Under the pieces are notes generated by a model. It saw nothing but the letters and a program-made list of their open reading frames with translations. It had not been told where the DNA came from and ran no database searches. A stretch of 64,000 bases of DNA from the NCBI GenBank assembly GCA_964645705.1, contig CAZYAB010000004.1, positions 295 through 64,294 of the forward strand, written 5' to 3'. The position numbers and the translations under genes were made by a program. Of the stretch, positions 2,493-45,287 are shown in pieces (the stretch's first letter is position 1; every line of letters starts with the position of its first letter). The DNA is from an uncultured Methanosarcinales archaeon. Lineage in GTDB: Archaea; Nanobdellota; Nanobdellia; Woesearchaeales; CAXGTL01.

Positions 2493-2536
2493 TTTAATAA
2501 ATACATTTTTAATTATTATTCATAAATCAATCTTAA

Positions 2537-8500: not shown

Positions 8501-9505
8501 CTTTGCAAAATTCTCTAGATCATTATCAGCAATTGTTATGCTAGGATCTGGCATACAAACAAACCAGTGTTCATAATTAGAAACAACATCATAGACAAGA
8601 TTGTCATCTCCCCTGTATACTTCGAATGTTTTAAAAGGAATTTCTTCATTACTAAACCATTTATATTTTTCATGATTAATACAAAGATGTTCTTCATATA
8701 TCATTCCATTATCATCAACATCATCATTACCACAACATTTATTATTTTCAGGAGCACCATCATAAAAAGCTTCAGTTCTGTAAATGTCTAATTGTTCAGG
8801 ACTTAAACTAGAATCTATTTTATAAGCACACCTTGTTTTATATTCTTCAGGAGAATATTCTGGTAATTTACAAGCAACTTTTTCATGATCACCACCTAAA
8901 AGATCTCCTCCAATACCTAAGTTAGTACATTCTATTATTTCATTTTCAGGCAAAATAGGACTATCAAATTCACCTACAATAGTACCATATGAAATTACAT
9001 AATAATCACCATCATCAGGAGCACATTCAAGTCTTATATCAGAATAATCTTCATTTTCTCTTAAACATGAAACAGCACATATAGATGTTTGTACAGATGA
9101 TTGAATATCAAATATACTTTCACCACAACTTGCGAAAGTTTCATCAGGACCACCTGCCAATACAGCTTGATTAATATTTCTAGCTAGATTAATCTTACTA
9201 TAAATACTACCTGAATTTACCTTAACAATATAAGAACCACAAGTAGATGGAGGATCAGAAGCAGGAAATGGTGCTGGTCTTTGATGTTTTTCACCTGAAC
9301 ATGCTTGGAAACTGTGTCCAGCAGTTGTATTTGTACAAAAGAAATTACATTCAGGAACAGGAAACTGGATATTGCCTGGAACACCTTGTCTGTCTACAAC
9401 ATTACGTCTATTATAATACCCAGGTAAAAGACCAAAAACACCAAAACTAGAACAAATAATTAAAACAATCAAACATACAAAGACAAATTTCTTATTAAAT
9501 CTCAC
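2537..9505 (-). CDS. Giant (2322 aa) secreted Cys-rich surface protein with thrombospondin-type-3-like acidic Ca-binding repeats
   Basis: Long ORF with an N-terminal signal/TM (MRFNKKFVFVCLIVLIICSSFGVFG). Many Dx(D/N)xDGxxD-like motifs are present (DTDGDGYLDGEDDNP, DSDADSCSGDD, DDDNDGICDGE, DDDDDNDGLVDYPN), along with numerous Cys pairs. Confidence 0.7.
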   Translation of the reverse strand: MRFNKKFVFVCLIVLIICSSFGVFGLLPGYYNRRNVVDRQGVPGNIQFPVPECNFFCTNTTAGHSFQACSGEKHQRPAPFPASDPPSTCGSYIVKVNSGSIYSKINLARNINQAVLAGGPDETFASCGESIFDIQSSVQTSICAVSCLRENEDYSDIRLECAPDDGDYYVISYGTIVGEFDSPILPENEIIECTNLGIGGDLLGGDHEKVACKLPEYSPEEYKTRCAYKIDSSLSPEQLDIYRTEAFYDGAPENNKCCGNDDVDDNGMIYEEHLCINHEKYKWFSNEEIPFKTFEVYRGDDNLVYDVVSNYEHWFVCMPDPSITIADNDLENFAKINPDDGERFIDKPQLTGEVTSSFSDIVSSPSQASSGFASISGDVIANVVGFAVGDNDVPNCPEGYDLEDFDCDGFIEPEDCDNNPADDHTQYAGNFRAADIYPGAFDPCGDGIDQDCLDDFAQFETCTPTPQVPNIDYHHKSVTYLCDRHDKRGAFVQCCGSNLEYCGEENTGKFITKLRLAGSLSTTLKDFDNIETTSMPGYDLVNFPQLSSNQVLKIKFDKDTVEFGDEFLFPIFINQADGGNLDSDAEIYDFTKYDYLDFFYKTMTNYVLKIRFYGESRNDHETFNPLDYIVIEDLDVKDFIVNSPNLDKWLHVVIPIQEVQNKYGIDLSNVRLIALVADPTEVKTSYQFQVFDGNKPYDNIVYIDRLSLKYNDDPDDSSDDNYYCVSNKYTENDKERIWVNDLDTDKLDRENVRATMYACSTTPGYSWTGTRCCGDDQTYGNDEYYADEYYGCWKGNVATPHMRIGNVQYKFDIGTNTEQFVTKTQVCMNNKCLYPVTNAKLSGSNSNADSDLFEICPESHVDFRLVSLQENDEIDVSCKSTSDGNAFISAENIPLQIAFDNGKFHSCFANNVNLPQSLVQDDMINQDVEFCEVLGEKFFCSYPHGNIDEPEWSDETFFSPRLNRFIYANERNTTREIPFDKGDENYEDMKYEFFYDMVNDKGCCPDDFCFNGSGCVDSIPKDSFNGPGDNTDYSQFKGSFTSEWGKKNSKEFGFDQYVCKYDDEIQQADWVETYYRVKYDNSSSGYCLSHEQCWNDECVDNGYWEDDNYCRVGNWTSRTKLLAEELAKIGLMKNPLGEIPPFALLCDNYTNTLNYYEYPIEGISSLPEFLSGSRNIKKRINNFCILTYGENQENVVIGATLNKDENNELTQALDGFLRITPDNDNCDNERALRTDGTYNYCVDDKTNNYLWLNRGTGSVIYSRQGVRPNTETLTIFSQMIEHPVISLVAFIKKIFGAYYYDDDAQEFALLDSVDNFNTIYLAKNNDRNVLGYREILYESDYADYSSGILIIEFKNFNADVCSKLVDNEDYLAECIVTLPKPDEDGDINEKPTYIVSAIRPRYFNIWHDATAKIRFHDKTFPSKDFTAQIDFPNLESEENYRFDVNQELSLRGSFTDQENIQSFYWDIDEDPKSDTINGVVYGRNIKKNINDFYKKNAEGYHYIRLVAIGYDGHVELAQTSICIDDGTYGESDIDDDGFPNGCDLDDDNDGICDGEIGYSSGLGVPSGGCVAEEQEDGEIKDNCPWIPNGPKKGICVDVVDDFYSEIIECGELAQNPVCGSGKVCKTEQSFNPCDDDQDEDGVTNALDAFPTEPAAALNFDKDRKPDVWNSRATDDMIEASGLTLDDDDDNDGLVDYPNTAGESKACNYNPDCDFDHLIDGLNKEVPVSGLSAKQLAYYESWVNDLGIAHTFENNVYLFYGEASHNTLVREFDTDADFIPDVNEIFGTDSEFAIEPKIDPSHRFYNKITMPDKRDTDDDTLNDYDEIVVHDTDPTKQDTEDDGMRDDWEIEYGLDPNSDADSCSGDDISNLDIAVCNIDGDKYTNLQEFEECLEKFGETCDPTEPDTDGDGYLDGEDDNPVRGDGPEILISSISPQPESVIYYETIQEGVKEITFSVDKDSSCYISDDIDDVIDANTVDDGFKMMDITTTEKKDHVVLKPNLGKNGENIFYINCWDNTLGKNEMNDVFILRVFYDTMKVNIIPSEAMYDIININPKIFVQTNRKAECKIKPSLDGVQIPDYSYDTDDDLKLMDPENVEQTLHSYELDFSEQFNEMITECLGAGSDGLFGSLITTGESIDRLFANKCIGVAESSSEICNDVFGIFADIAGGALELDEVEEMNTGCNTILESLELSDFDTVVEEQCDVLEDSTEKDMCIMIANLGQALKLGKDHDNFHTYCENAKVVGENCPPDVCFDISSLCYAAVTNDKRYCYASYCSQAYAIPYHYSVMCKDPVNTEIMIDNVLMEDTYVGDVYFSYEIDVD

Positions 9506-9564: not shown

Positions 9565-10668
9565 TTGCTATTTTTACTAAATAAAGTTATATATAGATAC
9601 AGTAATTCAATAATATTAATAAACCTAGAAATAAATCCATACATAGACATGGAAAATAATAAAAACAAAAAATTAGAGGAAATCAAGATAGAAATAACTA
9701 ACAAATGCAATAAAGATTGTTATTTTTGTTTCTCAACAAAAACATTAGAAAAACAAGATATGGATTTTGATACAATAATAAGTATATTAGACCAGGCAAA
9801 AGAAATAGAAGCATTGGGTGTGAGAATAACAGGCGGTGAACCATTACTACACAAAGACATAAAACATATTCTACAAGAATGTAGGAAAAGGAATCTTTAT
9901 ACAATTGTTAATACAAATGGAGAATTATTCACAGAAAATAACATAGACATTCTAAATAATGTTGATGAAATATTAGTATCAGTACACTCAACAGAAGAAT
10001 TTGAAAATAAAAAAGAAATAATAAATAGAATAAAACAATCATTCACTTACCAAACCAGGGGTGGGGGGCCGGGGGTAATGGAAGGTGGGCCTAACCTAGT
10101 AATCAAAGCATGCACAATAATGACAAAACAAAATATAGCTCAGCTAGAAGAATTTTATAACTTTTTTGAACAAAATAAAATTAATCAATGGTTCTTGCTA
10201 AGACCTGTTTCAACAGATAAAGAAATTGGATTAGACAAAGAACATGCAATTAAATTGATAAACAAAATAATACAATTAAATAAAAAACACAAAACACAAA
10301 CATTTATTGCAAACGCTGTTCCTTTTTGTATTTTAGATGAAAATAATAGTACAGAAAACAGATCAAAAATGATAAACATTTGCATTGGTGGAAGAAATGA
10401 TAATGCAAACACAAAAATAGTTGTTGATGTAAATGGTAATATAAAACCAGATTATCATTCTGAAACAGTTTTTGGCAACATAAACAATAACACTATAAAA
10501 CAAATATGGAACTCAGAACAATTAATGAATTATAATACAATAAACATTCCTGACAAGTGCAAACAATGTGATTACTTTGCAAAATGCAAAGCAGGAATAT
10601 TATTAAATGAAAAACAAGAAATAGATGGAAGAAAAATAAGATTTGACCCTTTGATGAAAAATGATTAA
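9565..10668 (+). CDS. Radical SAM enzyme with C-terminal SPASM-like Cys cluster
   Basis: CNKDCYFC (Cx3Cx2C) sits near the N-terminus, followed by a GGEPLL motif and the C-terminal CKQCDYFAKCKAG. The real start is probably the internal Met (MENNKNKK) near 9646. The gene contains an in-frame Gly-rich insert (TRGGGPGVMEGGPN) encoded by a G-rich DNA motif. Confidence 0.75.
   Translation: MLFLLNKVIYRYSNSIILINLEINPYIDMENNKNKKLEEIKIEITNKCNKDCYFCFSTKTLEKQDMDFDTIISILDQAKEIEALGVRITGGEPLLHKDIKHILQECRKRNLYTIVNTNGELFTENNIDILNNVDEILVSVHSTEEFENKKEIINRIKQSFTYQTRGGGPGVMEGGPNLVIKACTIMTKQNIAQLEEFYNFFEQNKINQWFLLRPVSTDKEIGLDKEHAIKLINKIIQLNKKHKTQTFIANAVPFCILDENNSTENRSKMINICIGGRNDNANTKIVVDVNGNIKPDYHSETVFGNINNNTIKQIWNSEQLMNYNTINIPDKCKQCDYFAKCKAGILLNEKQEIDGRKIRFDPLMKND
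10045..10092 (+). repeat. G-rich motif copy A (cttaccaaaccaggggtggggggccgggggtaatggaaggtgggcc), in-frame inside the rSAM gene
   Basis: This is a GC/G-run island in an AT-rich gene. It encodes the Gly-rich insert TRGGGPGVMEGGPN. It matches copy B at 21695-21734 at ~29 of 37 positions. Confidence 0.6.
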
Positions 10669-12127
10669 TATGAATTTATTTGAACAAGAGAATGAAAAAA
10701 CATTTACAGAGATACTCAGAGAAATAAATCTTTTAGACAAAAATCAAAAAATTAAATTAATAATTAACAAAGAATTGGAAAAAAATGATTTAAATGAAAT
10801 AATAAAATGCATTCTAAGAATAGAGCCAAAACAAATATTTATAGAGACTAATTTAAGCATAATTAACAAGATAAATAAAGAGGAGTTTAAAAATGAAAAA
10901 ATTCATTACATAATAAATATAGACGAGAAAAACATACTAGATATAAATATAGAGGATATAAAAAATTCAAAATACAGTTTTAGAATAAAAGATACAGAAT
11001 TAAAAAAAAGATTAGAATCATTTGATCCTTACAATATTTTTATTTATGAAGAAAAAACAAAAGAGAAGACAATAAATGAAAAAATAAAAGACAATATTCT
11101 AGAACCAATTAACAAAAGACTTGGCTTGGAAATTTCCTTAGATGAGGTTTACAGACTCATGATCAGATTTGAAGAAAATTCTGATTTTTGGGAAGTAGTT
11201 GAAAAGATAGGCTATCCATTACCAATAATAATTGAGGTATTAGAAGGTTTAGAAAAATTAAATTTAATTGAAATCAATAATCTGGATATAAAAATAAAAT
11301 ATAAATTTTCAAGAGAATTAAAACAAATACAAGACTTTAGCAAGCAAAGACTTTCAAGTAATGAAGATTATTGTCAATTATTAGTTAACCAAAATGATTT
11401 AATTAGAAGGATACAATTCATAAGAAATTGTTGCAGAACAGGTGGAAAGATTGCAATTCTTGGAGATGATGATTTTATGTCATTAAACATTGCAACAACC
11501 AATATATTCGACAAAATTACTGTTTTTGAAATTGATCAAAGAATAGTGGATAAATTAAATGAACTTGCAAAACAGAATAATCTAAACTTAGTCGCAATAC
11601 AACAAGACCTAAGAAAACCTTTTCCAAATAAATTTAAAGAAAAGTTTGATGCATTTTATACAGACTCAACATATTGTGTAAATGGCTTTAAATTATTTAT
11701 TTCTAGAGGGATTGAATTATTAAAGAATGAACCAAAATGCCACGGATTTGTTTCTTTTTCTCCAGAGATTCCTGTAATTTATGACACAGAATTACCAGTA
11801 CAAAAATTAATCAATGAAATGAACCTTTTTATTGAAAGAAAAAATCTTGGAGCGGTAAACATAGTTCCAGATGAATTTAAAGAAAAGTATAACAACATTG
11901 ACAAATTAAGAGAAAACATTTTTATTAATTACAAAATAATAAACAATAATGAAGCATGGTATCTTGCCTGTTTTGGAAGGAAAGAATATTTATATCACCT
12001 ATTAACTACAAAAAATACAAAATCATTATTAGATGGTGAATTTAAAGAAGAAATATATTTTACCAAAAGACCATTAGAATTTTATAATGAAAATTTTGAA
12101 AAAACAACAAACAAAAATGCAAAATAA
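10661..12127 (+). CDS. DUF43/BpsA-like protein (putative polyamine aminopropyltransferase/methyltransferase fold)
   Basis: The C-terminal half shows a Rossmann-like pattern, AILGDDDFMSLNIA...VFEIDQRIV...QQDLRKPFP...FDAFYTDSTY...LFISRGIELLK. I recall this as typical of the DUF43 family that includes branched-chain polyamine synthase BpsA. The assignment is from memory of the family motifs. Confidence 0.45.
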   Translation: MINMNLFEQENEKTFTEILREINLLDKNQKIKLIINKELEKNDLNEIIKCILRIEPKQIFIETNLSIINKINKEEFKNEKIHYIINIDEKNILDINIEDIKNSKYSFRIKDTELKKRLESFDPYNIFIYEEKTKEKTINEKIKDNILEPINKRLGLEISLDEVYRLMIRFEENSDFWEVVEKIGYPLPIIIEVLEGLEKLNLIEINNLDIKIKYKFSRELKQIQDFSKQRLSSNEDYCQLLVNQNDLIRRIQFIRNCCRTGGKIAILGDDDFMSLNIATTNIFDKITVFEIDQRIVDKLNELAKQNNLNLVAIQQDLRKPFPNKFKEKFDAFYTDSTYCVNGFKLFISRGIELLKNEPKCHGFVSFSPEIPVIYDTELPVQKLINEMNLFIERKNLGAVNIVPDEFKEKYNNIDKLRENIFINYKIINNNEAWYLACFGRKEYLYHLLTTKNTKSLLDGEFKEEIYFTKRPLEFYNENFEKTTNKNAK

Positions 12128-13289
12128 ACAAACACAAAACAAAAAACCATTAGAACATATAAAAGTAATTGATTTAACAAGAATATTATCTGGACCATTT
12201 TGTACAATGCTCCTTAATGACTTAGGCGCAGAAATTATAAAAATAGAAAAACCCAATACAGGGGATGATTCAAGACAGTTTGGTCCTTTTATAAATAATA
12301 AAAGTGCTTATTTTATTAGTTTAAACAGAGGAAAGAAATCAATAACTTTAAACTTAAAATTAGAAAAAGACAAAGAAATTTTTAAACAATTAATAAGTAA
12401 AGCAGATGTTCTTATTGAAAACTTTAAACCTGGAACAATGAAAAGACTAGGACTAGATTATGAAACATTAAAAAATATTAACTCTAAATTAATTTATGCA
12501 TCAATATCAGGATTTGGACAAACAGGACCATTATCCAATAATCCTGCTTATGATATAATAGCACAAGCATACAGTGGGTTAATGAGCCTAACAGGAGAAG
12601 AAAACAGAAATCCTGTAAGAGTTGGTGTATCTATAGGGGACATTTCAGCAGCATTGTTTACAACAATAGGAATTATTTCTGCATTATATAATAGACATAA
12701 AACAGGTAGAGGTGAAAAAATAGATGTTTCAATGATTGACTCATTGATTGCAATATCTGAAAATGCAGTCGCACGTTATTCAATAACAAATAAAATTCCT
12801 AAACCACTTGGAACAAGACATCCATCAATAACACCATTCCAAGCATACAAAACAAAAGATGATAGAATAATTATTGCTGTTGGAAATGATATATTATGGG
12901 AAAAATTTTGCTTAAGCATAAACAAACCAGAATTAATCAATGATATAAGATTTAATTCCAATGAAAAAAGAACAAAAAATATTGAACAATTAAACAAAAT
13001 ACTAGAAGAAACAATTAAGAATAAAGCAACATCAGAATGGTTAGATATCTTTAAAAATAACAACATACCCTCAACAAGAATCAATACAATAAAAGACGTT
13101 ATGTATGATAAACACATTTTATTTAGAAATATGATATTAAACATTGATTACAAAGAGTTAGAAAAATTAAAAATCACAGGAAACCCTATAAAAATGAGTT
13201 CAATAAAAGAACAAGCAAAACACTCAAAAGCACCAGAACTAGGAGAGCATAATGAAGAAATAATAGATGAACTAAAAAATGATAAATGA
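12087..13289 (+). CDS. CoA-transferase family III (CaiB/BaiF-type)
   Basis: [36 protein letters not shown] is the hallmark N-terminal motif of family III CoA transferases. The likely true start is the internal Met at ~12114, which removes the overlap with the upstream gene. Confidence 0.8.
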   Translation: [400 protein letters not shown]

Positions 13290-14235
13290 AAATTTTAATG
13301 CAGGAATTATTGCAACAGGTTCTTACTTACCTGAAAAAATAATTACAAATAAAGATATAGCTAATATGGGTGTTGATACCAGCGATGAATGGATTAAACA
13401 AAAAATAGGAATATCATCAAGACATTCCTCAGCTGATGACGAAGAAGTACACCATTTAGCAGCAAAAGCTGTCAATGATTTATTAAATAATACAAATATA
13501 AAATCAGAGGATATAGATTTAATCATATGCTCATCAACAACACCTAATTATTTTTGTCCAGCAACAGCCTGTCTTGTGCAAAAAGAAATCAATGCAAAAA
13601 ACGCAGCAGCATTTGATATAAACAGCGTATGCTCAAATCCAATAATAACAATTGAAATAGCATGTAAGTTCATAAAAGATGGAACATATAAAAATATAAT
13701 CATAGTCAGTTCTGAAGCGCCAACAAAAGGTACTGATTGGAAAAAGAGAGATACCTCTGTTTTCTTTGGTGATGGAGCCGCTGCAGTACTAATAGGAAGA
13801 GTTGATAAAGATAAAGGATTACTCTCAACTTATTTTAAATCAGATGGAACAAGGCACCATGTTCTAGTATCCAAAACAGATGACAGAAAATTAATAATGG
13901 ATGGTAAAGCAATATTTGAATTTGCAACAAATGTTTTTCCAGAATCAATAAAAGAAGTAACAGAAAAAGCAGGATACAAAATTAAAGATGTAGATTTTAT
14001 AATATCACACCAAGCAAATCTAAACATTATAAAAACATCAATGCAAAAACTAAATTTACCAATGTCTAAGACACATACAGTAATTGAAACAACTGGAAAT
14101 ACAATCGGAGCTTCAGCATTGATAGCTCTTGATTCAGCGGTTAAACAAGGAAAAATAAAAACAAATGATTTAATTGCATTGGTTGCATTTGGCGGTGGTT
14201 TAAGTTGGGGTGCTAATTTGATTAGATGGACATAG
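13279..14235 (+). CDS. fabH: 3-oxoacyl-ACP synthase III (FabH-like condensing enzyme)
   Basis: N-terminal GIIATGSYLPEKIITNKDI...SDEWI is the KAS III signature. The C-terminal ISHQANLNII and GNTIGASALIALD (the His/Asn catalytic region), and an active-site Cys context (SSTTPNYFCPATACLV), are present. Confidence 0.8.
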   Translation: MINENFNAGIIATGSYLPEKIITNKDIANMGVDTSDEWIKQKIGISSRHSSADDEEVHHLAAKAVNDLLNNTNIKSEDIDLIICSSTTPNYFCPATACLVQKEINAKNAAAFDINSVCSNPIITIEIACKFIKDGTYKNIIIVSSEAPTKGTDWKKRDTSVFFGDGAAAVLIGRVDKDKGLLSTYFKSDGTRHHVLVSKTDDRKLIMDGKAIFEFATNVFPESIKEVTEKAGYKIKDVDFIISHQANLNIIKTSMQKLNLPMSKTHTVIETTGNTIGASALIALDSAVKQGKIKTNDLIALVAFGGGLSWGANLIRWT

Positions 14236-14244
14236 GTGGAATAA

Positions 14245-14991
14245 ATGGATCTAAAAAATAAAACAGCCATAATAACAGGATCATCAAGAGGAATTGGAAA
14301 AGCAATAGCAATAAAACTTTCTGAATTAGGTTGTAATGTAATAATTAATTACAATAGAAATAAAGAACAAGCAGAAGAATTAGTAGAATCAATAAAAAAC
14401 AAATTCAATGTTAAAGCAATTGCATTAAAAGCAGATATAAGCAATTATGAAGAGGTAAGAACAATGATTAATCTAGCAATTGAAAGATTTGAAAAAATAG
14501 ATTTCTTAGTAAACAATGCAGGAATTTCAAGAGATGGATTAATACAAAATATGGAAATCGAAGATTGGGAAAAAGTAATCAAAACAAACCTAAACAGTGT
14601 ATTCTATTGTTCAAAAATAATTACAAATCACATGATAAAAAATCTATCTGGAAAAATAGTAAACATATCATCTATTTCAGGTGAAACAGGAAACATAGGC
14701 CAAACAAGTTATTCAGCATCAAAAGCAGGTATTATAGGATTTAGTAAAGCATTGGCAAAAGAATTAGCAAGACACAATATAAATGTTAATGTTGTAAGCC
14801 CTGGATTAATTAAGACAGAAATGACAAATCACATTCCTGAACAAATAAAAGAAAAGATACTCAAAATGATCCCATTTAGAAGAATAGGAACTCCAAAAGA
14901 GATTGCAAATGTAGTAGCATTCCTTTTGTCAAAAGAATCAGATTATATTACTGGACAGATTATAAGAGTAAATGGTGGACTATACATATGA
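14245..14991 (+). CDS. fabG: Short-chain dehydrogenase/reductase, 3-oxoacyl-ACP reductase-like
   Basis: TAIITGSSRGIGKAIA is the NAD(P)-binding motif. NNAG is present. YSASKAG supplies the catalytic Tyr/Lys. The length is typical of a FabG-like SDR. Confidence 0.85.
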   Translation: MDLKNKTAIITGSSRGIGKAIAIKLSELGCNVIINYNRNKEQAEELVESIKNKFNVKAIALKADISNYEEVRTMINLAIERFEKIDFLVNNAGISRDGLIQNMEIEDWEKVIKTNLNSVFYCSKIITNHMIKNLSGKIVNISSISGETGNIGQTSYSASKAGIIGFSKALAKELARHNINVNVVSPGLIKTEMTNHIPEQIKEKILKMIPFRRIGTPKEIANVVAFLLSKESDYITGQIIRVNGGLYI

Positions 14992-16271
14992 TATTTGACA
15001 AAGAAAATGAAACCTTAAGCAGAAAAAATATAAAACAACTTCAATTAAAAAGATTAAAACAACTTTTAGATTATGTCTGGAACAGTGATTCTGATTATAA
15101 AAAAAAGATGTTACAAGCAAAAATAAGTCCAGATGATATAAAATCATTACAAGATATAAAGAAATTACCATTTACAACAAAAAAAGAATTTAGAGAAAAA
15201 TATCCTCATTCATTTAGAATAAGAAACATAAATGATGAAAAGATAAGGGGAATTCATACCACTTCCGGTACAACAGGCACAGAAAGTGTAATTTATTTTA
15301 CTGAAAAAGATTGGGACATAGCCCAACAAATAGTAGCAAGAATGTTAGTATCAACAGGAATAACAAAAAACGATATTGTTGATCAAGCATTCCCTAATGG
15401 CTTACCATTTGCAGGGAAAATAAATCATGATTCCTTGCAATATAAAATCGGTGCAACAGTTATAAATATTGGAATAAGAAAAGGGCTTATTAATCAACAG
15501 ATATTAGCATTAAAAAACTTAGGAGCAACAGTCTTCATGGGACTCCCAAGTTATTTTCTTCATATACTGAAAGAGATGAAATCAAAAGGAATAAATATAT
15601 CAACACTTAAAATAAAAAAAGCAATTTTTATTGGAGAACCATTAATAGAAGAGATAAAAACAAAGATAAAAGAAAAATTACCTAACATTGAGATATTTAA
15701 CGCACTTGGTCAAACAGAGATGCATGGGGCAATAGGAGAATGTATTGAAAAAAATGGTTTTCACCTTAATGAAGATTTATTTATTCATGAAATAATAAAT
15801 TCTAAAACAGGAGAAGATTGTAAAAAAGGTGAATATGGTGAGCATGTTTTTACAGGATTAACATATGAAGCCCAGCCAATCATAAGATACAGATCTGGTG
15901 ACATTACAACATTTGTTAATGATGAACAAGAGATTTGTTCATGTGGAAGAACTTCAAGAAAAATTAAACCCCCTAAATCAAGAATAGACAATTATTATAA
16001 AATAAAAGGAACATTGATTAATCCAGAGCAACTAGATAGGATAATATTATCATTTAACGAAATATTAGACTATCAAATAATCATTTCCAAAGATGAAGAA
16101 CTTGATAAATTTGATGTTTTGTTAGCATCTAACAAAGAAATTAATACTCAAGATTTAAAAAAAAAAATAAAAGATGAAATAAACATAACTCCAACAAAGA
16201 TAAAAATAGTTGATCTTATGGAATTTAAAAAAAGATCATGGAAAACAAAAAAGATCATTGATAAAAGATAA
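14988..16271 (+). CDS. Phenylacetate-CoA ligase / coenzyme F390 synthetase-like adenylate-forming enzyme
   Basis: The GIHTTSGTTGTESVIYFTEKDWD motif is characteristic of the PaaK/F390 synthetase family. The length is ~430 aa. Confidence 0.75.
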   Translation: MIFDKENETLSRKNIKQLQLKRLKQLLDYVWNSDSDYKKKMLQAKISPDDIKSLQDIKKLPFTTKKEFREKYPHSFRIRNINDEKIRGIHTTSGTTGTESVIYFTEKDWDIAQQIVARMLVSTGITKNDIVDQAFPNGLPFAGKINHDSLQYKIGATVINIGIRKGLINQQILALKNLGATVFMGLPSYFLHILKEMKSKGINISTLKIKKAIFIGEPLIEEIKTKIKEKLPNIEIFNALGQTEMHGAIGECIEKNGFHLNEDLFIHEIINSKTGEDCKKGEYGEHVFTGLTYEAQPIIRYRSGDITTFVNDEQEICSCGRTSRKIKPPKSRIDNYYKIKGTLINPEQLDRIILSFNEILDYQIIISKDEELDKFDVLLASNKEINTQDLKKKIKDEINITPTKIKIVDLMEFKKRSWKTKKIIDKR

Positions 16272-16273
16272 AA

Positions 16274-17317
16274 ATGATACCACCAACAGTTCCAGGACTT
16301 GATTTTACACAAAAAGAAATAGAACAAGCAAGAAAAGAAAATAAGCTTCTATCAATAGACTTAGAGTTTAGTAGAGATTGTAACCTAAATTGTATATATT
16401 GCTATGCATCTGCAGGAAAACCACTTGAAAAAGAACTAACATTAGAGGAGATTAAAGATGTCATTGACCAATCAATAGAACTAGGAGCTAAAACTTTCTC
16501 TTTAATAGGGGGTGGTGAACCCTTAATTTATAATAATTTATTTAAAGTTATAGATTATATAAAAGCCAAAAATAAGAAATGTATAGTATTCACTAATGGA
16601 ACTTTAATTACAAAAGAAATTGCAAATAAATTATTTAATGAAAAAATATCAATCGTTGTTAAACTAAATAGTATAGAACCATCTGTTCAAGATTTTTTAG
16701 CAGGAAAAGAAGGAACATTCAAAAAAATTCAACAAGGGATAACAAATCTTATGAATGCTGGATATCCTGATAAAGAAACAAAATTAGGAATGCAAACAAT
16801 AATCTGCAAACAAAATAAAGAAGAAATTAAACAACTTTGGGTTTGGGCAAGAAAAAATAAGATAATTCCTTACTTTGAAATTCTAACATATCAAGGTAGG
16901 CTACTTAAAAACCAAGACTTAATTTTATCAAAAGAAGAATTAGAAAAAATATTTAAACAAATAAACAAAATAGATGAAAAAGAATTCAAATATGAATGGA
17001 TTCCAAAACCTCCGTTAATGAGTTATTCATGCCAAAGAAATAAGTACAGCATCCATATAAAATCAAACGGAGACATACAACCATGTGTAGGAATAGAAAT
17101 AACACTAGGAAATATAAGAAAAAATAAGATTAAAGAAATACTCAAACATGAAACAATTTTTAAACTAAGAAACATAGAAAAATATATAAAAGGTAAATGT
17201 AGCACGTGCAAATATAATAATGCATGTTATGGTTGTAGGGGCAATGTTTTTAATAAAACTGAAGATTACCTTGAAGAAGATGATTTATGTTGGATTAATG
17301 AAAAATTAGAGGGATAA
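16274..17317 (+). CDS. Radical SAM enzyme with SPASM domain
   Basis: CNLNCIYCYA (Cx3Cx2C) and GGGEPL are present. The C-terminal CSTCKYNNACYGCRGN fits a SPASM auxiliary-cluster motif. Confidence 0.8.
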   Translation: MIPPTVPGLDFTQKEIEQARKENKLLSIDLEFSRDCNLNCIYCYASAGKPLEKELTLEEIKDVIDQSIELGAKTFSLIGGGEPLIYNNLFKVIDYIKAKNKKCIVFTNGTLITKEIANKLFNEKISIVVKLNSIEPSVQDFLAGKEGTFKKIQQGITNLMNAGYPDKETKLGMQTIICKQNKEEIKQLWVWARKNKIIPYFEILTYQGRLLKNQDLILSKEELEKIFKQINKIDEKEFKYEWIPKPPLMSYSCQRNKYSIHIKSNGDIQPCVGIEITLGNIRKNKIKEILKHETIFKLRNIEKYIKGKCSTCKYNNACYGCRGNVFNKTEDYLEEDDLCWINEKLEG

Positions 17318-17319
17318 AA

Positions 17320-18465
17320 ATGGAAGAAGAAAATTTAAACATAACAGAAAAAATGAAAAGATTATTAGATAATTTTAAGTCAATCAATCAAAATTATTCT
17401 ATAAACATCACAACTGAAGAGGATTTTAAAAAGATTCCATTAATGACTAGAAAAGAGGCCATAGAATTTAATATAGAAAAATGTCCTATAAATCCTTCTT
17501 ATATTGAAACAACTTCAGGAACGACTGGACCAGGATTTCTTTTATTTTTTAATGACAAATCTGCTGAACATTATATAAAAAGAATAAACCAAATATATCA
17601 AGCTTACAATCCTAACAATGAAAAAGGAAAAATGATTAATCTAATAGATACCATGTTTTATAATTTGATGATAATCAAAAACAAGAATCCTTTTATACAT
17701 GGCGGACTTTTAACACCTAAAAACAAAGATTTAATTGCATATAAAATAAAAACAATGAAACCAAAAGTTCTTATTTGTTACACCATGGGCCTAATAGATC
17801 TATTAAAAACTATTAATGATAAAAATACAATTGAACTTATATTCTGTGGAGGATCATTAGTAACTGAATCATTCCTTAATAAAGCAAAAGAATTAACAAA
17901 TGCAAAAATAATACCTGTTTATGCTTGTACAGAAGTGGGACCTATAGGCCATTATAATTCAACTTATGAAGGTTATTATAAACTAATTGAAGAAGGATTA
18001 TACATTGAAATATTAAATGAAAACAAAGAAATAAAAAGAATAGGTAAAGGGAACATAATAATCACAGATTTAAACAATTTTTCAATGCCAATAATAAGAT
18101 ATGCCCTAGGAGATATAGTAGAAATAATAGAAAAAGACAATCAAAAATATATTAAAATATTTGGAAGATCTGATAAATACACAAAAATAGGTGGGGACAT
18201 AATTCCTGTTGGACATCTAATGAACCTAATCACACCAATTTTAGGGCATGGAAATTTTTACATTAAAGTTGAGTTGGATGATACATCTACTGATAATATA
18301 TTTGTATTTGTACCAAAAGAGGATTTAATAAAAAAAGAAACAATTATAAAATTATTTAATGACATGTTCGACGTAAAAGCCTATGTTGAAGAACTTAAAA
18401 ATGGAATCCCAACAACCAATACAGGAAAACCAAGATTCTTTATAGATAACAGGAAATTAGAATGA
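17320..18465 (+). CDS. Second PaaK/F390-synthetase-like adenylate-forming ligase
   Basis: The IETTSGTTGPGFLLFFNDKSAEHY motif matches the PaaK family P-loop region. It is divergent from the first copy. Confidence 0.65.
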   Translation: MEEENLNITEKMKRLLDNFKSINQNYSINITTEEDFKKIPLMTRKEAIEFNIEKCPINPSYIETTSGTTGPGFLLFFNDKSAEHYIKRINQIYQAYNPNNEKGKMINLIDTMFYNLMIIKNKNPFIHGGLLTPKNKDLIAYKIKTMKPKVLICYTMGLIDLLKTINDKNTIELIFCGGSLVTESFLNKAKELTNAKIIPVYACTEVGPIGHYNSTYEGYYKLIEEGLYIEILNENKEIKRIGKGNIIITDLNNFSMPIIRYALGDIVEIIEKDNQKYIKIFGRSDKYTKIGGDIIPVGHLMNLITPILGHGNFYIKVELDDTSTDNIFVFVPKEDLIKKETIIKLFNDMFDVKAYVEELKNGIPTTNTGKPRFFIDNRKLE

Positions 18466-18899
18466 AAATAGAAAAAACAAAAGAAAAAGGTTTTATTAAC
18501 TTAAAAATAGGAGATTCTATATCTTTCATAAATAAAATAAACAATGATCAAATCAAAGAATATAGTAAATTGTCTGGGGATTATAACCCAATACATTTTG
18601 ATAAAGAATTTGCAAGAAAAACAATATTTAAAGAAATCATTGTTCCTGGATTCCTTCATATCATATTAGGAAGTAAAAAATTTTTTGAATTGTGTGGAGC
18701 AAATTACATAATAGTTTCATTTAGTTTTGACTTTTTAAAACCTGTTAAACAAGATGAAAATATCCACACAACAATAAAGATAATAGAAAAAATACAAGAC
18801 AAAAAAATGTTAAAGATTGAAGTAATATCAAAAACAGAAAATTCAGGAATAGTAAGCAAAGGGAATTTATTAACAAAGTATATTGGATTTTTAAAATGA
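18462..18899 (+). CDS. MaoC-like (R)-specific enoyl-CoA hydratase / hotdog-fold dehydratase
   Basis: DYNPIHFDKEFARKTIFKEIIVPGFL is the MaoC dehydratase motif. The 145-aa length fits a hotdog fold. The start overlaps the upstream stop by 4 nt. Confidence 0.75.
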   Translation: MKIEKTKEKGFINLKIGDSISFINKINNDQIKEYSKLSGDYNPIHFDKEFARKTIFKEIIVPGFLHIILGSKKFFELCGANYIIVSFSFDFLKPVKQDENIHTTIKIIEKIQDKKMLKIEVISKTENSGIVSKGNLLTKYIGFLK

Positions 18900-19540
18900 A
18901 TAAGATCAAAATAATAGGGATAGCATCTTCACCAAGAGAAGAAGAATCAATTTCAAAAATAATGTTAGATCATTTTTACATAGGATTAAAACCTTTTTCA
19001 GAAATAAGAACATTTTATCCTTATAAAATGGACATTGAATATTGTGATGGTTGCTTGAAATGTCATAAAGATAAAGAAGAATGCCCTATAGAAGATGACA
19101 TGAGAGATATTTATAAATACTTATACGAAGCAGATATAATTATTTTTTCATGTCCTGTATACTGTGGAAATATGAATGCTGTTATGAAAAATATTATTGA
19201 CAGGATGGATGGATTATTAGAAAACAAAATTAAATATCCTAAAAGATGTATACTAATATCAACATGTTCAAAACCTAATAACAAAGAATTTGATATGATT
19301 ACGTCACAATTTAATTTTTTTTGTAAAGAATGGGAATTTGGAAATGCAGGTGAAATTTTAATTTGTGGATCACATAGGCCAATAGACGAAAAATACCAAC
19401 AAAAATTAAATCTAATTTCAAGAGCTTCAAAACAACTATTAACAAAACAAAAAATAGATAATGAAATAATAGAAGAACTAAAAAGAATTGATTTCTCAGT
19501 TGAAGATTATAAACAAAAAAGTTATTATAAATTTGATTAA
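18896..19540 (+). CDS. Iron-sulfur flavoprotein / NADPH-dependent FMN reductase family
   Basis: KIIGIASSPREEES, a compact Cys cluster (CDGCLKCHKDKEEC) and DIIIFSCPVYCGNMNAVMKNIIDR are typical of Isf/NADPH-FMN reductase flavodoxin-like proteins. Confidence 0.65.
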   Translation: MNKIKIIGIASSPREEESISKIMLDHFYIGLKPFSEIRTFYPYKMDIEYCDGCLKCHKDKEECPIEDDMRDIYKYLYEADIIIFSCPVYCGNMNAVMKNIIDRMDGLLENKIKYPKRCILISTCSKPNNKEFDMITSQFNFFCKEWEFGNAGEILICGSHRPIDEKYQQKLNLISRASKQLLTKQKIDNEIIEELKRIDFSVEDYKQKSYYKFD

Positions 19541-19541
19541 A

Positions 19542-19883
19542 CTATCTCTTAACAACAGTCTTTTCAAAATCTCTTGCCTTAAACTCTTTAACAAGAAGAT
19601 CAAAAGCTTTCTCAGCATCACCTTCTTTACCACAAGTAAACACATCAACAGCAACAAAATTCTTCTCAGGCCACGTATGCACGCTTATGTGTGATTCAGC
19701 AATAAGAATTACTCCTGTAACACCATATGGTTTAAACTGATGAAACACCTCACCAACTTTATTAAAATTAGAATCATGAACAACTTTGTTTAATAAAGAT
19801 TTGACAGTATCAACTTCTTTTAACAATTCAACAGGACACCCATTCAAACTTCCCACAACATGTATGCCATGAAAATCTTTCAT
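19542..19883 (-). CDS. speH: S-adenosylmethionine decarboxylase proenzyme (pyruvoyl-dependent, SpeH type)
   Basis: GVILIAESHISVHTWPE contains the conserved ES|S self-cleavage site and the HTWPE motif of class 1 AdoMetDC. The ~113 aa length is typical. Confidence 0.85.
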   Translation of the reverse strand: MKDFHGIHVVGSLNGCPVELLKEVDTVKSLLNKVVHDSNFNKVGEVFHQFKPYGVTGVILIAESHISVHTWPEKNFVAVDVFTCGKEGDAEKAFDLLVKEFKARDFEKTVVKR

Positions 19884-19933
19884 TATAAGTGTTAGGATTG
19901 TTTTTATTATTTAAAAACTTTATCATGATTTTA

Positions 19934-20233
19934 TCAATAACTACTATGTATATGATGAGAAGCATGTGACAAGTGATGATTATGCACACCTTTTGCACCA
20001 ATTACTTTTTGTGTTTCAGGAGATACAGAATTTCTTACATCAAGAGCATTATCATGTATTGTATAATGTTGGTCTGACCAACCATCAGCTGAAACAGGTT
20101 TCACACTATGCAACAAAGACAAAGCAGCACCACCTAATACAGCTCCAGTCAAGATCATATTTTTCTTAGAAATCTTTCCTTCTTCTTCTAATAAGAACAA
20201 CTTCACCTTTTTTTTTATCTTAGGAAACTTCAT
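19934..20233 (-). CDS. Small His-rich secreted/membrane protein
   Basis: 99 aa. The N-terminus is Lys-rich and is followed by a hydrophobic segment (MILTGAVLGGAALSLL). The C-terminus is His-rich (KGVHNHHLSHASHHIHSSY). It lies between the rSAM gene and speH on the same strand. Confidence 0.45.
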   Translation of the reverse strand: MKFPKIKKKVKLFLLEEEGKISKKNMILTGAVLGGAALSLLHSVKPVSADGWSDQHYTIHDNALDVRNSVSPETQKVIGAKGVHNHHLSHASHHIHSSY

Positions 20234-20283
20234 CTATTCTATATAATATGTCTTATGTTTTAAATATTTTTCGTTTATTTTTA

Positions 20284-21669
20284 CTATTTCAACCAATTAG
20301 TAAAAATCTTTTTAGCATCCTCATCAAACAATAATTTTTCAAAAATATACTCAAACTGTTTTTTAACTAATATGCATCTCATTGTTTTATTAACATCAAC
20401 AATCAAGCTTTTGTGTTCAGAATAATTACAAACAGGGCACAAACCACAATATGGCTGCCATACACAATCATCACATTGTTGCACATCATTAATAGAAGCT
20501 AGAACAATGCTTGAACTAGTGTCATTAATAATAACATCACTTGGTTGTTGATTGATTGTTCCAATCATAAACAAATCATCATCAATCATCCTTGCTTCAT
20601 CACATGAATAAATCTTTCCATTAGGTGCATAAGTTAGCTGACTAATGCAAGCACCGCACGGACTTCTTAGTTCTGTATAATTCGGTTCAATATGTTCTAA
20701 TATTTTCTGTAGTATTATTAATGTAAATCTTTCAACAATCCTTGTATTTTTTTTATTTAATTCAATTATATAATCTAATGACTTTTTCCAATAATCAAAA
20801 TATTCATCAGCATCATATCCTATCTCTTGCCATGCTTTATCTGCACTCCCTAGTTTAGTCAAATGTCTTAGATGAATATTAGTAAATCCTTGTTTAACAT
20901 ATTCATCAATTATTTCTTTATGATAATCAAAAGCTTTTTTTGTAACTGTTATCAATGCATTAAGAATGAATTTATCATGAACAATTCCTTGTTGTTTCAT
21001 GTTTCTAATTTTACTTATCCAGTTAATAATTGTTTCATAATTACTATTAACATGTTTTCTTTGATAATCATGAACTTGTTTAGGACCGTCAAAAGAAGTG
21101 CACAAACCAATATCATTTTGTGCAATATACTTCATTATTTCTTCTGTCATTGATTCAAAATTAGTAACTAATGCAAATCTTAGATCTTTTTTATGTTCTA
21201 GATTAAGGTTTTTTGCATATTCAACTGCAAACTGCAATGTTTTATAATTAAGCAATGGTTCTCCTCCTTGAAACTCTATTGTTATGTGCTTAGTATTTGT
21301 TTTAAAAATAAAATCAATTATTTTTTTAGCAGTCTCAACAGTCATGCCTTTTCCACCAATTCTTTTTGAACTAGCTTGGCAATAAACACAATTAAGATTG
21401 CACTTATCAGTTAAAACAAGAATGTGTAAAGAAGGCCCTTGACATAAAAAAGAATATTTTTTAACAGGAAAATCATATTTTTCCTGTCCATCAGATATAA
21501 ACTCCTCACTTTTCAACAGATTATATAACTCTGTTTCTTGTTTTATTTCATCATTTTTAACAATATCAAATGATTCTTTTGTCAAGAAAACCCACTTGCC
21601 TAATTTATTGACTAATAAAAACTTGTTGTTTATTTCTGTGTAATTGTAAGGTTTTATTCTAGGTTTCAT
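20284..21669 (-). CDS. Radical SAM enzyme with SPASM domain (461 aa)
   Basis: CNLNCVYCQA (Cx3Cx2C) and FQGGEPLL are present. The C-terminal Cys-rich region (CDDCVWQPYCGLCPVCNY) is consistent with SPASM/twitch auxiliary clusters. Confidence 0.8.
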   Translation of the reverse strand: MKPRIKPYNYTEINNKFLLVNKLGKWVFLTKESFDIVKNDEIKQETELYNLLKSEEFISDGQEKYDFPVKKYSFLCQGPSLHILVLTDKCNLNCVYCQASSKRIGGKGMTVETAKKIIDFIFKTNTKHITIEFQGGEPLLNYKTLQFAVEYAKNLNLEHKKDLRFALVTNFESMTEEIMKYIAQNDIGLCTSFDGPKQVHDYQRKHVNSNYETIINWISKIRNMKQQGIVHDKFILNALITVTKKAFDYHKEIIDEYVKQGFTNIHLRHLTKLGSADKAWQEIGYDADEYFDYWKKSLDYIIELNKKNTRIVERFTLIILQKILEHIEPNYTELRSPCGACISQLTYAPNGKIYSCDEARMIDDDLFMIGTINQQPSDVIINDTSSSIVLASINDVQQCDDCVWQPYCGLCPVCNYSEHKSLIVDVNKTMRCILVKKQFEYIFEKLLFDEDAKKIFTNWLK

Positions 21670-21694
21670 TTTAATATTATTTTCTAGCCCTTAT

Positions 21695-21734
21695 CTTACC
21701 AGGGGCGGGTGGTTGGGGGTGATGGGTGGTGGGG
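21695..21734 (+). repeat. G-rich motif copy B (cttaccaggggcgggtggttgggggtgatgggtggtgggg), intergenic just upstream of the minus-strand rSAM start
   Basis: Top-strand G-tracts (GGGG, GGG, GGGGG, GGG, GGGG) make it G-quadruplex-capable. It shares the cttacca…cagggg…gggggtRatgg…ggtggg pattern with copy A. Confidence 0.6.
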
Positions 21735-21750
21735 AATATTTATTTAATAT

Positions 21751-22011
21751 TTACACCTCATTTTTATCTTTCATCAACACAAAGATATAATTGCAAAGTT
21801 CTAGACATGTTTTTTCATAATCATCTACATCAACATTATCATTAAATATGATATTAATAACAAAATAATTAACATCGACAACAATCTCAAAATTGAAAAA
21901 ATCACTAAACTCCTTACAAGATTCACTGATAGAATCTCGACTATAAATGTCTTTATTTAACTCGATAATTGCTGATTTATTCTCTTTATTTATCTTTATC
22001 ATTTTCATCAT
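21751..22011 (-). CDS. Hypothetical small protein
   Basis: 86-aa ORF with no recognisable motif. It overlaps the next ORF by 26 nt. Confidence 0.3.
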   Translation of the reverse strand: MMKMIKINKENKSAIIELNKDIYSRDSISESCKEFSDFFNFEIVVDVNYFVINIIFNDNVDVDDYEKTCLELCNYIFVLMKDKNEV

Positions 22012-22354
22012 TAGTTTTATTAGTATTAGATATTAATTGCATGATAAAGTCGACAAACTCTTTTTTATCATTTAATTTATTCTTGTGAATATCATAAACA
22101 TTTAATTGAGAGACCACATCACTAGATAACAATTTCAAATCATCTTTATTTAATCTAATTTTAGGAATAAGAGTAATAATAAAACCACCTTGAATTATAT
22201 CCTTGTCTAATAATAAATAATTATCATCTGAAAAACCAAACAAAGCTGAAGAAATAGTATTTAGATCTAGATGAGATGAAGAATTTAGAATAATCTTATT
22301 ATTCTCATGATCAATTACAATATTTTCATTAGGTATTAAATTCATCATAACCAT
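21986..22354 (-). CDS. Hypothetical protein
   Basis: 122-aa ORF, co-directional with the downstream peptidase-like gene. No motif recognised. Confidence 0.35.
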   Translation of the reverse strand: MVMMNLIPNENIVIDHENNKIILNSSSHLDLNTISSALFGFSDDNYLLLDKDIIQGGFIITLIPKIRLNKDDLKLLSSDVVSQLNVYDIHKNKLNDKKEFVDFIMQLISNTNKTNDENDKDK

Positions 22355-45143: not shown

Positions 45144-45287
45144 TCTCAAAAACTAAGACAATAATGAAAGACATAACAAAACAAAGAAGAAAATACAAGA
45201 TTAAAAAAAACAAACCAAAATAATAAATCAAATAGATTTGATTAGAACAAAATAAAAACAAACAATATAGGAGGCGAACAAATATGT

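Follow-up and report, generated by a model that had tools for sequence, protein, structure and literature searches.

Why should a DPANN archaeon keep genes for radical S-adenosylmethionine (SAM) enzymes, polyamine chemistry and fatty-acid-like chain building packed side by side, and what would such genes make together? The genes in question lie in a stretch of 64,000 nucleotides (nt) from contig CAZYAB010000004.1 of assembly GCA_964645705.1 (below, the window, numbered from its first letter). A preliminary description had singled them out as a biosynthetic cluster for an unusual small molecule, with no obvious precursor peptide and an open substrate; these last two statements are not supported. 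The cluster is real and system-like and is organised around a ribosomal peptide. A His-rich open reading frame (ORF) at 19934-20233 on the minus strand, beside the gene for the radical SAM maturase HxsB, encodes an HxsA3-like precursor, and the minus-strand arm to which both belong is a His-Xaa-Ser (HXS) system with its precursor. The conserved core of related loci consists of HxsA, HxsB and HxsD together with a radical SAM enzyme, an S-adenosylmethionine decarboxylase (AdoMetDC) and a BpsA-like protein, which makes a ribosomal peptide the most likely substrate, ahead of a membrane lipid or a small molecule in free form. The reading preferred here, with a probability of roughly 0.55, is that positions 9649-23211 hold one composite 13.6-kb system of a DPANN (Nanoarchaeota/Woesearchaeales-like) archaeon, namely an archaeal HXS variant to which an aminopropyl branch has been added and, in the genome studied, also a cassette working on acyl-CoA independently of acyl carrier protein (ACP). 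The product is best read as an aminopropylated, probably acylated, exported HxS peptide.

HXS is an antiphage system of Proteobacteria with the components HxsA, HxsB, HxsC and HxsD, and 99.7% of HXS systems occur in Pseudomonadota (Li et al., Nat Commun 2026, PMC13128918). HxsB, HxsC and HxsD mature HxsA by processing its N-terminus and by changing the mass of an HxS repeat by +8 Da; the HxsC-HxsD complex of E. coli engages the HxS motif, and the exported product blocks the entry of phage DNA, an antiviral effect known just for E. coli and related HXS systems (PMC13128918). Proteins of the window were compared to the HXS family models NCBIfam TIGR03976-03979, and domain calls throughout rest on Pfam gathering scores and on the curated cutoffs of NCBIfam equivalog models. 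HxsB (20284-21669, minus strand, 461 amino acids, aa) aligns to TIGR03978 over its full length with 424.9 bits against a cutoff of 370, and has orthologues in the related loci L005 (41% identity), L008 (45%; 490 bits) and at the end of L012. Directly upstream, an 86-aa HxsD-like protein (21751-22011, minus) exceeds the cutoff of NF038315 (48.8 bits against 41) and has counterparts in a 69-aa protein of L008 (67 bits) and in 62-aa proteins of L005; the canonical HxsD model TIGR03976 gave no detection in the window. The next gene (21986-22354, minus) encodes a 122-aa protein without a family match in Pfam and NCBIfam profile searches. It weakly resembles the 146-aa protein of L008 and the HxsD proteins of L005 (phmmer 2e-4, small database) and is probably a divergent HxsD, as it occupies the position of HxsD in the relatives, between the HxsD-like/HxsB genes and a gene for a Peptidase A24. 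This prepilin-peptidase-type polytopic membrane protease (22345-23211, minus) scores 31 bits against a gathering score of 26.5 and has both Asp motifs (YQDIKYNKIKN and AGDAKL); homologues with 30-32% identity come first in the L005 operon and lie close to the cluster of L008.

The precursor itself has 99 aa, matches the HxsA3 model NF038309 in its N-terminal part and has homologues in L005, L008, L012 and L024. The five sequences have in common a basic leader, PK(V/I/L)KKK(V/I)..F(L/I)..E(E/D)G(K/R)ISK, with the invariant core PK.KKK..F..E.G.ISK. Next comes a Gly/Ala-rich hydrophobic segment, and after it V-x-A in four of the five (V-V-K in L008). The tail, HNHHLSHASHHIHSSY in the window, follows the pattern H..H...H..H..H.SY-COOH, its five His and the terminal SY being invariant across the five loci; the L024 peptide ends in ...HSHHSNHCSY. 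The three parts look like a leader for recognition, a signal for export and, at the C-terminus, a core that is modified. The arm resembles HXS in an HxsB above the curated cutoff, in HxsD-type proteins directly upstream of it, and in a His-rich H-x-S-type substrate with an export signal and an N-terminal region that is probably removed. Unlike the substrate of HXS, the peptide has 99 aa and no peptidoglycan-binding domain, and its repeats stand at the extreme C-terminus and end in SY.

The cluster is also longer than was thought. As described before, ten genes run in the same direction on the plus strand up to 19540, with junctions of -41 to +9 nt and three ATGA stop/start overlaps (FabG/PaaK1, PaaK2/MaoC and MaoC/FMN_red). 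The first of them is open from a TTG at 9565, the start given earlier; the likelier start is the ATG at 9649 (339 aa), which is that of the public gene call and has TATA-like boxes upstream. Instead of the three converging genes first counted, six lie on the minus strand, from 23211 down to 19542, leaving a gap of 1 nt to the plus-strand arm. The ORF for the 122-aa protein and the A24 peptidase gene continue the same transcription unit, which therefore runs to 23211 and not to 21734, and the resulting order A24-HxsD-HxsD-like-HxsB-HxsA-SpeH is that of the single operon of L005. The enzyme families assigned earlier were reproduced by Pfam above the gathering scores for Radical_SAM with SPASM (two genes), DUF43, CoA_transf_3, FabH, adh_short, AMP-binding with AMP-binding_C_2, MaoC, FMN_red and AdoMet_dc; the second of two supposed PaaK-type ligases is the exception. 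HxsB, the third gene then called a radical SAM/SPASM enzyme, has no Pfam SPASM domain, though its C-terminus is Cys-rich.

The contig is recorded as a 157-kb scaffold from a groundwater metagenome. The window has a GC content of about 28%, and its host is an archaeon, since it encodes RNase P p30, Nop56/58, fibrillarin and RFC. The bacterial-type look of several enzymes had raised the question of horizontal acquisition. GC content, GC at third codon positions (0.14-0.20 in the cluster) and codon-usage divergence, gene by gene, are indistinguishable from those of housekeeping genes in the rest of the window, and there is therefore no indication of recent transfer. Over the cluster region, scans with Rfam models and for tRNA genes were empty. 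A scan for bacterial promoters and terminators gave fewer promoter-like sites than shuffled sequences and was set aside, as the model is not meaningful for an archaeon.

The polyamine branch is encoded on both strands. SpeH, a pyruvoyl AdoMetDC (19542-19883, minus), scores 128.9 bits with TIGR03330 against a cutoff of 75.65 and carries the Glu-Ser (ESH) self-cleavage motif: AESHISVHTWPE. Its gene adjoins the BpsA-like gene or HxsA in L005, L006, L012, L022 and L024, and adjoins DUF43 genes in the distant bacterial loci L009, L013 and L014 as well. The DUF43 protein of the window (10661-12127, plus), already called BpsA-like in the preliminary description, scores 125.6 bits with PF01861 (BpsA_C; gathering score 27), and its family profile matches Thermococcus BpsA (Tk-BpsA, 5xnc) with an E value of 4.9e-26 over both the winged helix-turn-helix (wHTH) and the catalytic domain. 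All nine best Foldseek matches belong to the BpsA family, eight being the characterised Tth- and Tk-BpsA and the ninth Pfu 2qm3, deposited as a predicted methyltransferase; as the AlphaFold model is of low confidence (predicted local distance difference test, pLDDT, 60), only this family-level fold match was used. In Tk-BpsA the GDDD motif (G157-D160) positions the aminopropyl group of decarboxylated SAM (dcSAM), and Asp225 belongs to a TDPP motif (review PMC12979288). The corresponding G268-D269-D270-D271 and D335 of TD(S/P)P are invariant in the family (alignment A1; numbering checked on the alignment with 5xnc). A further conserved element, GE(F/Y)xEEIY(Y/F), lies near the C-terminus; it is at most a candidate for the acidic cluster (E339-E345) that serves Tk-BpsA as aminopropyl carrier. 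Because of the invariant GDDD and TDPP-type Asp residues, the profile and fold matches and the adjacency to SpeH, the most likely activity would be dcSAM-dependent aminopropyl transfer.

What ties this enzyme to the peptide system is its architecture in the relatives. About 15 protein clusters among 1.84 billion representatives have the full architecture, five of them found via the indexed search. Each is a fusion of 570-670 aa that starts with a Cys-less HxsC-like domain. When this domain was compared with 18,950 NCBIfam models, HxsC or HxsC4 came out best for seven of nine fusions and within the first four for the remaining two; the domain resembles the HxsC-like proteins of its own locus more than any other radical SAM protein. 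The cluster cysteines (CX3CX2C) are gone in all nine, CNNNCxxC being replaced by, for example, IDNNKEVY. Such a dead HxsC-like domain is best read as a putative module that docks to HxsD, to the HxS tail or to both, because the HxsC-HxsD complex of E. coli engages the HxS motif (PMC13128918). In the window the N-terminal extension has about 150-220 aa and is degenerate. L008 (12116-14777) holds a second BpsA paralogue, also with a dead HxsC-like N-domain and with GDED for GDDD (LLGDEDNIS). A gene for a spermidine-synthase-domain protein comes next, a hint of stepwise polyamine-type extension there.

Two further radical SAM/SPASM enzymes accompany these genes. The gene for rSAM1 (9649-10668, plus; Radical_SAM 64 bits, SPASM 34 bits), with CNKDCYFC as its CX3CX2C motif, overlaps the BpsA-like gene by 8 nt. 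Its orthologues are found in L012 (569-1525, 36% identity, adjoining HxsA), L022 (30%) and L005 (35%), where rSAM1 forms the C-terminal half of a two-domain enzyme whose other half is HxsC-like, with CX3CX2C kept in both. rSAM2 (16274-17317, plus; Radical_SAM 84.7 bits, SPASM 37 bits) is AhbD/NirJ2-like, scoring about 150 bits with the NirJ2/AhbD models and remaining under their cutoffs; its best relative in the related loci is a 342-aa radical SAM protein of L008 (29% identity), encoded beside a homologue of PaaK2.

The loci with BpsA fusions all come from DPANN-type archaea (Nanoarchaeota, Nanobdellota, Woesearchaeales). L005 has a single operon of A24 peptidase, HxsD, HxsD-like, HxsD, HxsB, HxsA-like, the two-domain HxsC~rSAM1 enzyme, SpeH and the BpsA fusion. 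L012 has HxsB, HxsA-like, rSAM1, SpeH and the fusion. In L008 the HxsA-like gene overlaps the fusion, and HxsB, HxsC-like, two HxsD-type genes, the second BpsA paralogue, the spermidine-synthase-domain gene and the A24 peptidase are also there. L006 carries a pair of HxsC-like genes, then the fusion, then SpeH, and L022 has rSAM1, the fusion and SpeH. Genes of one and the same set recur from locus to locus. Relatives keep HxsA and HxsB with rSAM1, AdoMetDC and the HxsC-like~BpsA fusion, and this assigns the polyamine genes to the peptide system. Neighbours of unknown family in the related loci gave no Pfam match. The RNase P p30 gene, at 26458-27123 in the window and about 14 kb from the BpsA-like gene, stands beside the fusion in L005, L006, L007, L008 and L021, a conserved chromosomal neighbourhood across proteins that are only 40-50% identical. 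A run of L007 genes (400, 325, 243 and 402 aa) that was considered as a second CoA-transferase/FabH/FabG/ligase series was rejected, the Pfam matches being pyruvate:ferredoxin oxidoreductase subunits, DUF218 and DUF460.

Does the fatty-acid-like part of the cluster belong to the same system? FabH (13279-14235, plus), a 3-ketoacyl-ACP synthase III with the ACP_syn_III N- and C-terminal domains, exceeds the cutoffs of PRK09352 (338.4 bits against 249) and TIGR00747 (297.7 against 292.1) and, aligned to solved FabH structures, keeps the Cys112-His244-Asn274 triad. The position of Arg249 in E. coli FabH (PMC10054515), Arg in Firmicutes FabH, is Asn here (HQANLNII) and across the clade of archaeal metagenome-assembled genomes (MAGs). 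As noted previously, no core ACP gene is present: a search of the whole 64-kb window for similarity to E. coli AcpP and for the DSL motif was negative. FabH probably acts independently of ACP, because the window holds no ACP and Arg249, the ACP-docking residue, is replaced by Asn throughout the archaeal clade. The FabG-type 3-oxoacyl reductase (14245-14991, plus), a short-chain dehydrogenase with an adh_short domain, scores 310.3 bits with TIGR01830 against a cutoff of 297.75, and FabG is paired with FabH in L017, L018-20 and L024 (41-48% identity). The MaoC-type (R)-hydratase/dehydratase (18462-18899, plus; MaoC_dehydratas 65 bits) has a homologue with 42% identity that adjoins the BpsA-like gene in L024. 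The FMN_red flavoprotein (18896-19540, plus; 55.6 bits) carries an Isf-type CxxCxxCx5C motif, CDGCLKCHKDKEEC; the L024 counterpart upstream of FabH is without the Cys motif.

Three enzymes handling acids and CoA esters complete the cassette. The family III CoA-transferase (12087-13289, plus; CoA_transf_3 426.6 bits) is probably of dicarboxylate type, its closest solved structures being the dicarboxylate transferases SUGCT (9br6, 330 bits) and YfdE (4hl6, 324 bits), and it remains under every NCBIfam equivalog cutoff (372 against 522 for the YfdE type). Its nearest relatives being dicarboxylate transferases, it would fit the supply of a malonyl-type extender, a role that is speculation. PaaK1 (14988-16271, plus) has the AMP-binding and AMP-binding_C_2 domains expected of a PaaK-family acid-CoA ligase, matches the PaaK structure 4r1l with 212 bits and is below the PaaK equivalog cutoffs (277 against 700 and 250 against 646). 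PaaK2 (17320-18465, plus), called a second PaaK-type ligase before, reaches 24 bits with AMP-binding against a gathering score of 29.9, and 20-25 bits with the PaaK equivalogs, and is a divergent adenylate-forming (ANL/PaaK-like) enzyme with the motifs TSGTTG, TE, GD, GR.D and a C-terminal GK. Both keep the ANL core motifs and are therefore PaaK-like adenylating enzymes. PaaK2 is nearly unique in an index of 5.8 billion proteins, where a word-indexed search gave only itself and remote matches, and yet tblastn found a full-length homologue (34% identity, E 2.5e-69) inside the Hxs/BpsA cluster of L008. Remote relatives in L025 and L026 (CapK-like, glycan cluster), with 25-27% identity, are too distant for a transfer of function. 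The L025 relative (27%) lies in a Firmicutes-like cluster (1099-5623) with a PP-binding carrier, a 493-aa radical SAM protein, a bacteriocin-like ORF, an ABC transporter and an S8 peptidase, which looks like a cluster for an acylated, radical SAM-modified peptide.

The related loci examined first had no gene for the CoA-transferase, FabH, FabG, PaaK1, MaoC or FMN_red, which suggested an unrelated insertion. This view was overturned by the PaaK2 homologue of L008 and by L024, a Woesearchaeales contig that carries the third-closest FabH in the databases (49% identity) in the same context. There the start of the BpsA fusion is preceded by MaoC on the same strand, FMN_red, FabH and FabG follow one another in the opposite direction, and SpeH lies downstream of the HxsA-like gene, with identities of 37-49%. 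Four cassette genes thus stand between the BpsA-like gene and SpeH-HxsA, in an order different from that of the window, which at such identities argues for selection on clustering and not for recent common ancestry. The suggestion that fatty-acid-like and polyamine genes form one conserved system is borne out by this arrangement. In MAGs of Altiarchaeota and others, FabH of the same clade is likewise found together with FabG (and MaoC) in other contexts, often beside radical SAM or glycosyltransferase genes, and therefore behaves as a portable "short (hydroxy)acyl" cassette; as far as gene content goes, the acyl cassette is a recurrent accessory of the peptide system. The presence of FabH in a DPANN archaeon is less surprising than the preliminary description held, since bacterial fatty-acid-synthesis genes were already noted in some DPANN genomes (Woesearchaeota; PMC8204110), and FabH homologues turn up in Altiarchaeota, Thorarchaeota and Euryarchaeota MAGs. 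L017 (Altiarchaeota JAZDNF010000008, 5543-11970) combines a B12-binding radical SAM protein, FabG, MaoC, an HpaB-type hydroxylase, a 4HBT thioesterase and two tandem FabH of the clade without Arg249, and is a further archaeal pathway for an acyl or aromatic group that looks free of ACP. In the metagenome contigs L018-L020 a FabH-FabG pair of this clade lies among radical SAM/SPASM, Acetyltransf_9 and several glycosyltransferase genes (GT9, teichoic-acid-type), which suggests an acyl-decorated glycan.

Taken as one pathway, the genes would work as follows. The HxsA3-like precursor would be bound via its basic leader, and HxsB and rSAM1, with the two HxsD-type proteins, would modify its C-terminal His/Ser tail by radical chemistry. 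SpeH would deliver dcSAM, from which the BpsA-like transferase would move aminopropyl groups either onto the peptide itself or onto a polyamine that is attached to it afterwards; in the relatives the dead HxsC-like domain would tether the transferase to the peptide system. PaaK1 would activate a carboxylic acid and the dicarboxylate-type CoA-transferase would give the extender CoA ester, on which FabH, FabG, MaoC and the flavoprotein could perform one or a few rounds of chain extension, while rSAM2 and PaaK2 may tailor or attach the acyl group. The leader would then be cut at the V-x-A signal-peptidase-type site or by the A24 peptidase, and a polycationic, possibly lipidated peptide would be displayed outside the cell. 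By analogy to HXS this peptide may hinder the entry of viral DNA; a role in attachment to a host is equally open.

Other explanations of the locus have to be considered. One is that three unrelated units, a SpeH/BpsA-like housekeeping pair, a CoA-dependent pathway of the fatty-acid-synthase (FAS) type and an Hxs peptide, have been packed together by genome compaction or synteny. The window is gene-dense throughout, with overlapping genes elsewhere too, RNase P p30 accompanies the BpsA-like gene in six loci, the fusion of L007 occurs with a B12-binding radical SAM gene and no Hxs genes, and FabH-FabG pairs are found in other contexts, for example with glycosyltransferases in L016 and L018-20. 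However, the orthologues are only 30-50% identical and their orders are rearranged, and still the genes are contiguous. Moreover, two fusions tie the parts together (HxsC-like~rSAM1 in L005, dead HxsC-like~BpsA in the ~15 protein clusters), and in two independent loci the FabH cassette has the BpsA-like gene on one side and SpeH-HxsA on the other, making accidental packing quite unlikely. The model of the preliminary description, in which the product is a small molecule tailored by the radical SAM enzymes (an alkyl lipid, or a polyamine bearing acyl groups or cross-links) and the peptide is irrelevant or a carrier or regulator, is also judged unlikely. It draws on the free polyamines that are the substrates of the BpsA enzymes characterised to date (PMC12979288), on the spermidine-synthase-domain gene and second BpsA paralogue of L008, on the failure to find a peptide acyltransferase, and on a CoA ligase, FabH, FabG and MaoC that make up classic small-molecule chemistry. 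Against this, the known substrate of the HxsB family is the HxsA protein (PMC13128918), HxsA-like genes adjoin or overlap the rSAM1/BpsA genes in L005, L008, L012 and L024, and the dead HxsC-like domain that the transferase carries is most sensibly seen as a module docking to the peptide or HxsD; such a model leaves HxsB, HxsA, HxsD and this dead domain unexplained. Finally, the polyamine genes could do other work, the BpsA-like protein being a methyltransferase or a non-catalytic scaffold and SpeH a neofunctionalised decarboxylase of another substrate. DUF43 has the class I methyltransferase fold, methyltransferases are the next fold matches after BpsA, the identity to BpsA is just 21-24%, the structure model is poor, and AdoMetDC homologues have repeatedly evolved into arginine or ornithine decarboxylases. 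The invariance of the dcSAM-positioning GDDD, a SpeH well above the AdoMetDC cutoff and the recurrence of DUF43 beside SpeH in distant bacteria make this very unlikely.

The composite reading itself has several points to contend with. HxsC is missing from the window, where the best radical SAM protein scores 57 bits with the HxsC model against a cutoff of 267.9 and blastp to the HxsC-like protein of L008 gave only 38-59 bits; the HxsC-like genes of L005, L006 and L008 have HxsC as their best match (120-179 bits) and are also under the cutoff. The precursor scores 34 bits with NF038309 against a cutoff of 65. Since HxsC is absent and HxsA3 is under its cutoff, the locus is filed as an extended HXS variant and not as a canonical member. 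The N-terminal extension of the BpsA-like protein in the window matched none of the family models, the HxsC-like domain being lost there. The CoA-transferase, PaaK1 and rSAM2 occur in the window locus only among the related loci, no acyltransferase (of the GNAT type, for example) able to join an acyl group to the peptide was found, and L024 is a 3.3-kb contig of about 2x coverage. BpsA-like genes without Hxs genes in view are known from L007 and from the short contig L021, and since RNase P p30 lies close to the BpsA-like gene in every case, inherited synteny could account for some of the linkage. The aminopropyl acceptor could be a free polyamine, and the chemical steps are all read from family membership. 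The fullest chemical version of the composite system is an exported His-rich peptide that is cross-linked by radical SAM enzymes, aminopropylated by a BpsA enzyme recruited via a dead HxsC domain and acylated in some lineages, which can be offered only tentatively and is doubtful in its entirety.

In addition to the differences in its substrate, the locus departs from HXS in the archaeal host, in the absence of HxsC, although relatives carry HxsC-like radical SAM genes, and in the presence of AdoMetDC, a BpsA-like transferase, an extra radical SAM/SPASM enzyme, an A24 peptidase and the acyl-CoA cassette. NCBIfam holds models for HxsA3, HxsC4 and HxsD-like variants, so that variant Hxs systems are known to curators. 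With BpsA, the N4-bis(aminopropyl)spermidine synthase of Thermococcus and Thermus (5xnc, 6j27; EC 2.5.1.128), the transferase shares a wHTH-like N-domain and a Rossmann catalytic domain, the conserved GDDD and TDPP-type Asp and an AdoMetDC encoded alongside. It differs in an identity of only ~21-30%, in the extra N-terminal domain, in a low-GC metagenomic DPANN host without sign of thermophily and in a context that points to a peptide-linked acceptor and not to free spermidine. Aminopropylation of a ribosomally synthesised and post-translationally modified peptide (RiPP) using dcSAM has a precedent in Bacillus subtilis, with microcin C (Kulikovsky et al., JACS 2025, a reference of PMC13381572). 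The likeness is one of logic only, microcin C being of the peptidyl-nucleotide class, made by unrelated enzymes, with no radical SAM enzyme or BpsA-family transferase. With type II FAS the cassette shares FabH and FabG above the NCBIfam cutoffs with intact catalytic residues, and the dehydratase and flavoprotein complete a formal round of elongation. Unlike type II FAS, it has no ACP in the window, a replaced Arg249, a MaoC hotdog enzyme for FabZ and FMN_red/Isf in place of FabI/K/L/V, and its PaaK-type ligase and CoA-transferase point to CoA-bound substrates; unlike other FabH-FabG cassettes of archaea and the candidate phyla radiation, it is embedded in a peptide-maturation cluster. Lipolanthines, goadvionins and selidamides are fatty-acylated RiPPs in which a ribosomal peptide is combined with an acyl unit from a dedicated FAS or polyketide synthase encoded in the same cluster, using ACP-bound intermediates and a GNAT-type acyltransferase. 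Only the idea is shared, neither ACP nor such an acyltransferase having been found in the window. No description of a Hxs-BpsA-AdoMetDC-FabH combination was found in the searchable literature, and the polyamine-like and fatty-acyl decoration of an HXS-related peptide appears to be a combination not described before.

Several other genes of the window deserve mention. Two giant minus-strand ORFs of 2322 and 2497 aa (2537-9505 and 33250-40743) belong to no recorded Pfam family and probably encode surface proteins of the DPANN type; part of the 2322-aa ORF is 26% identical to an ORF of L012 (8681-10588). Two overlapping radical SAM/SPASM genes at 50382-52413 on the minus strand (346 and 341 aa; 150-270 bits, under cutoffs) were considered as the missing HxsC and rejected, being AhbD/NirJ2-like; beside a 161-aa protein without family match (49852-50337) and an AlaX-like gene, they may form a separate maturase pair. 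A DNA gyrase subunit A of bacterial type (28866-31328, plus; 570 bits) lies beside ScpB and a THUMP methyltransferase. A 703-aa protein (57756-59867, plus) combines an unassigned N-terminal region of about 500 aa with a C-terminal adenylate/guanylate cyclase domain (103 bits). At 45072-47652 a tRNA-Cys (GCA) stands directly upstream of a PALP (cysteine-synthase-like) gene and a cysteinyl-tRNA synthetase gene, forming a cysteine-themed group.

HXS was shown to be antiviral only in 2026 and was reported as almost exclusive to Proteobacteria (PMC13128918). If the composite reading is true, HXS would extend across domains, and the radical chemistry behind its +8 Da change, which is unsolved, would gain an archaeal version with interpretable partners. 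The BpsA fold would have acquired a new use on a peptide-linked acceptor, and in the fullest version a BpsA-family enzyme would for the first time give a peptide a polyamine-type modification. A radical SAM domain that is dead would serve as an example of a recruitment module, while an archaeal FabH clade would seemingly work without ACP. The predicted mass shifts, in steps of +57.06 Da with acyl adducts, would make the pathway testable. Genome-reduced DPANN archaea would then spend about 13.6 kb on an elaborate surface or defence peptide, which may be an archaeal counterpart of the HXS barrier to DNA entry or a factor for attachment to the host.

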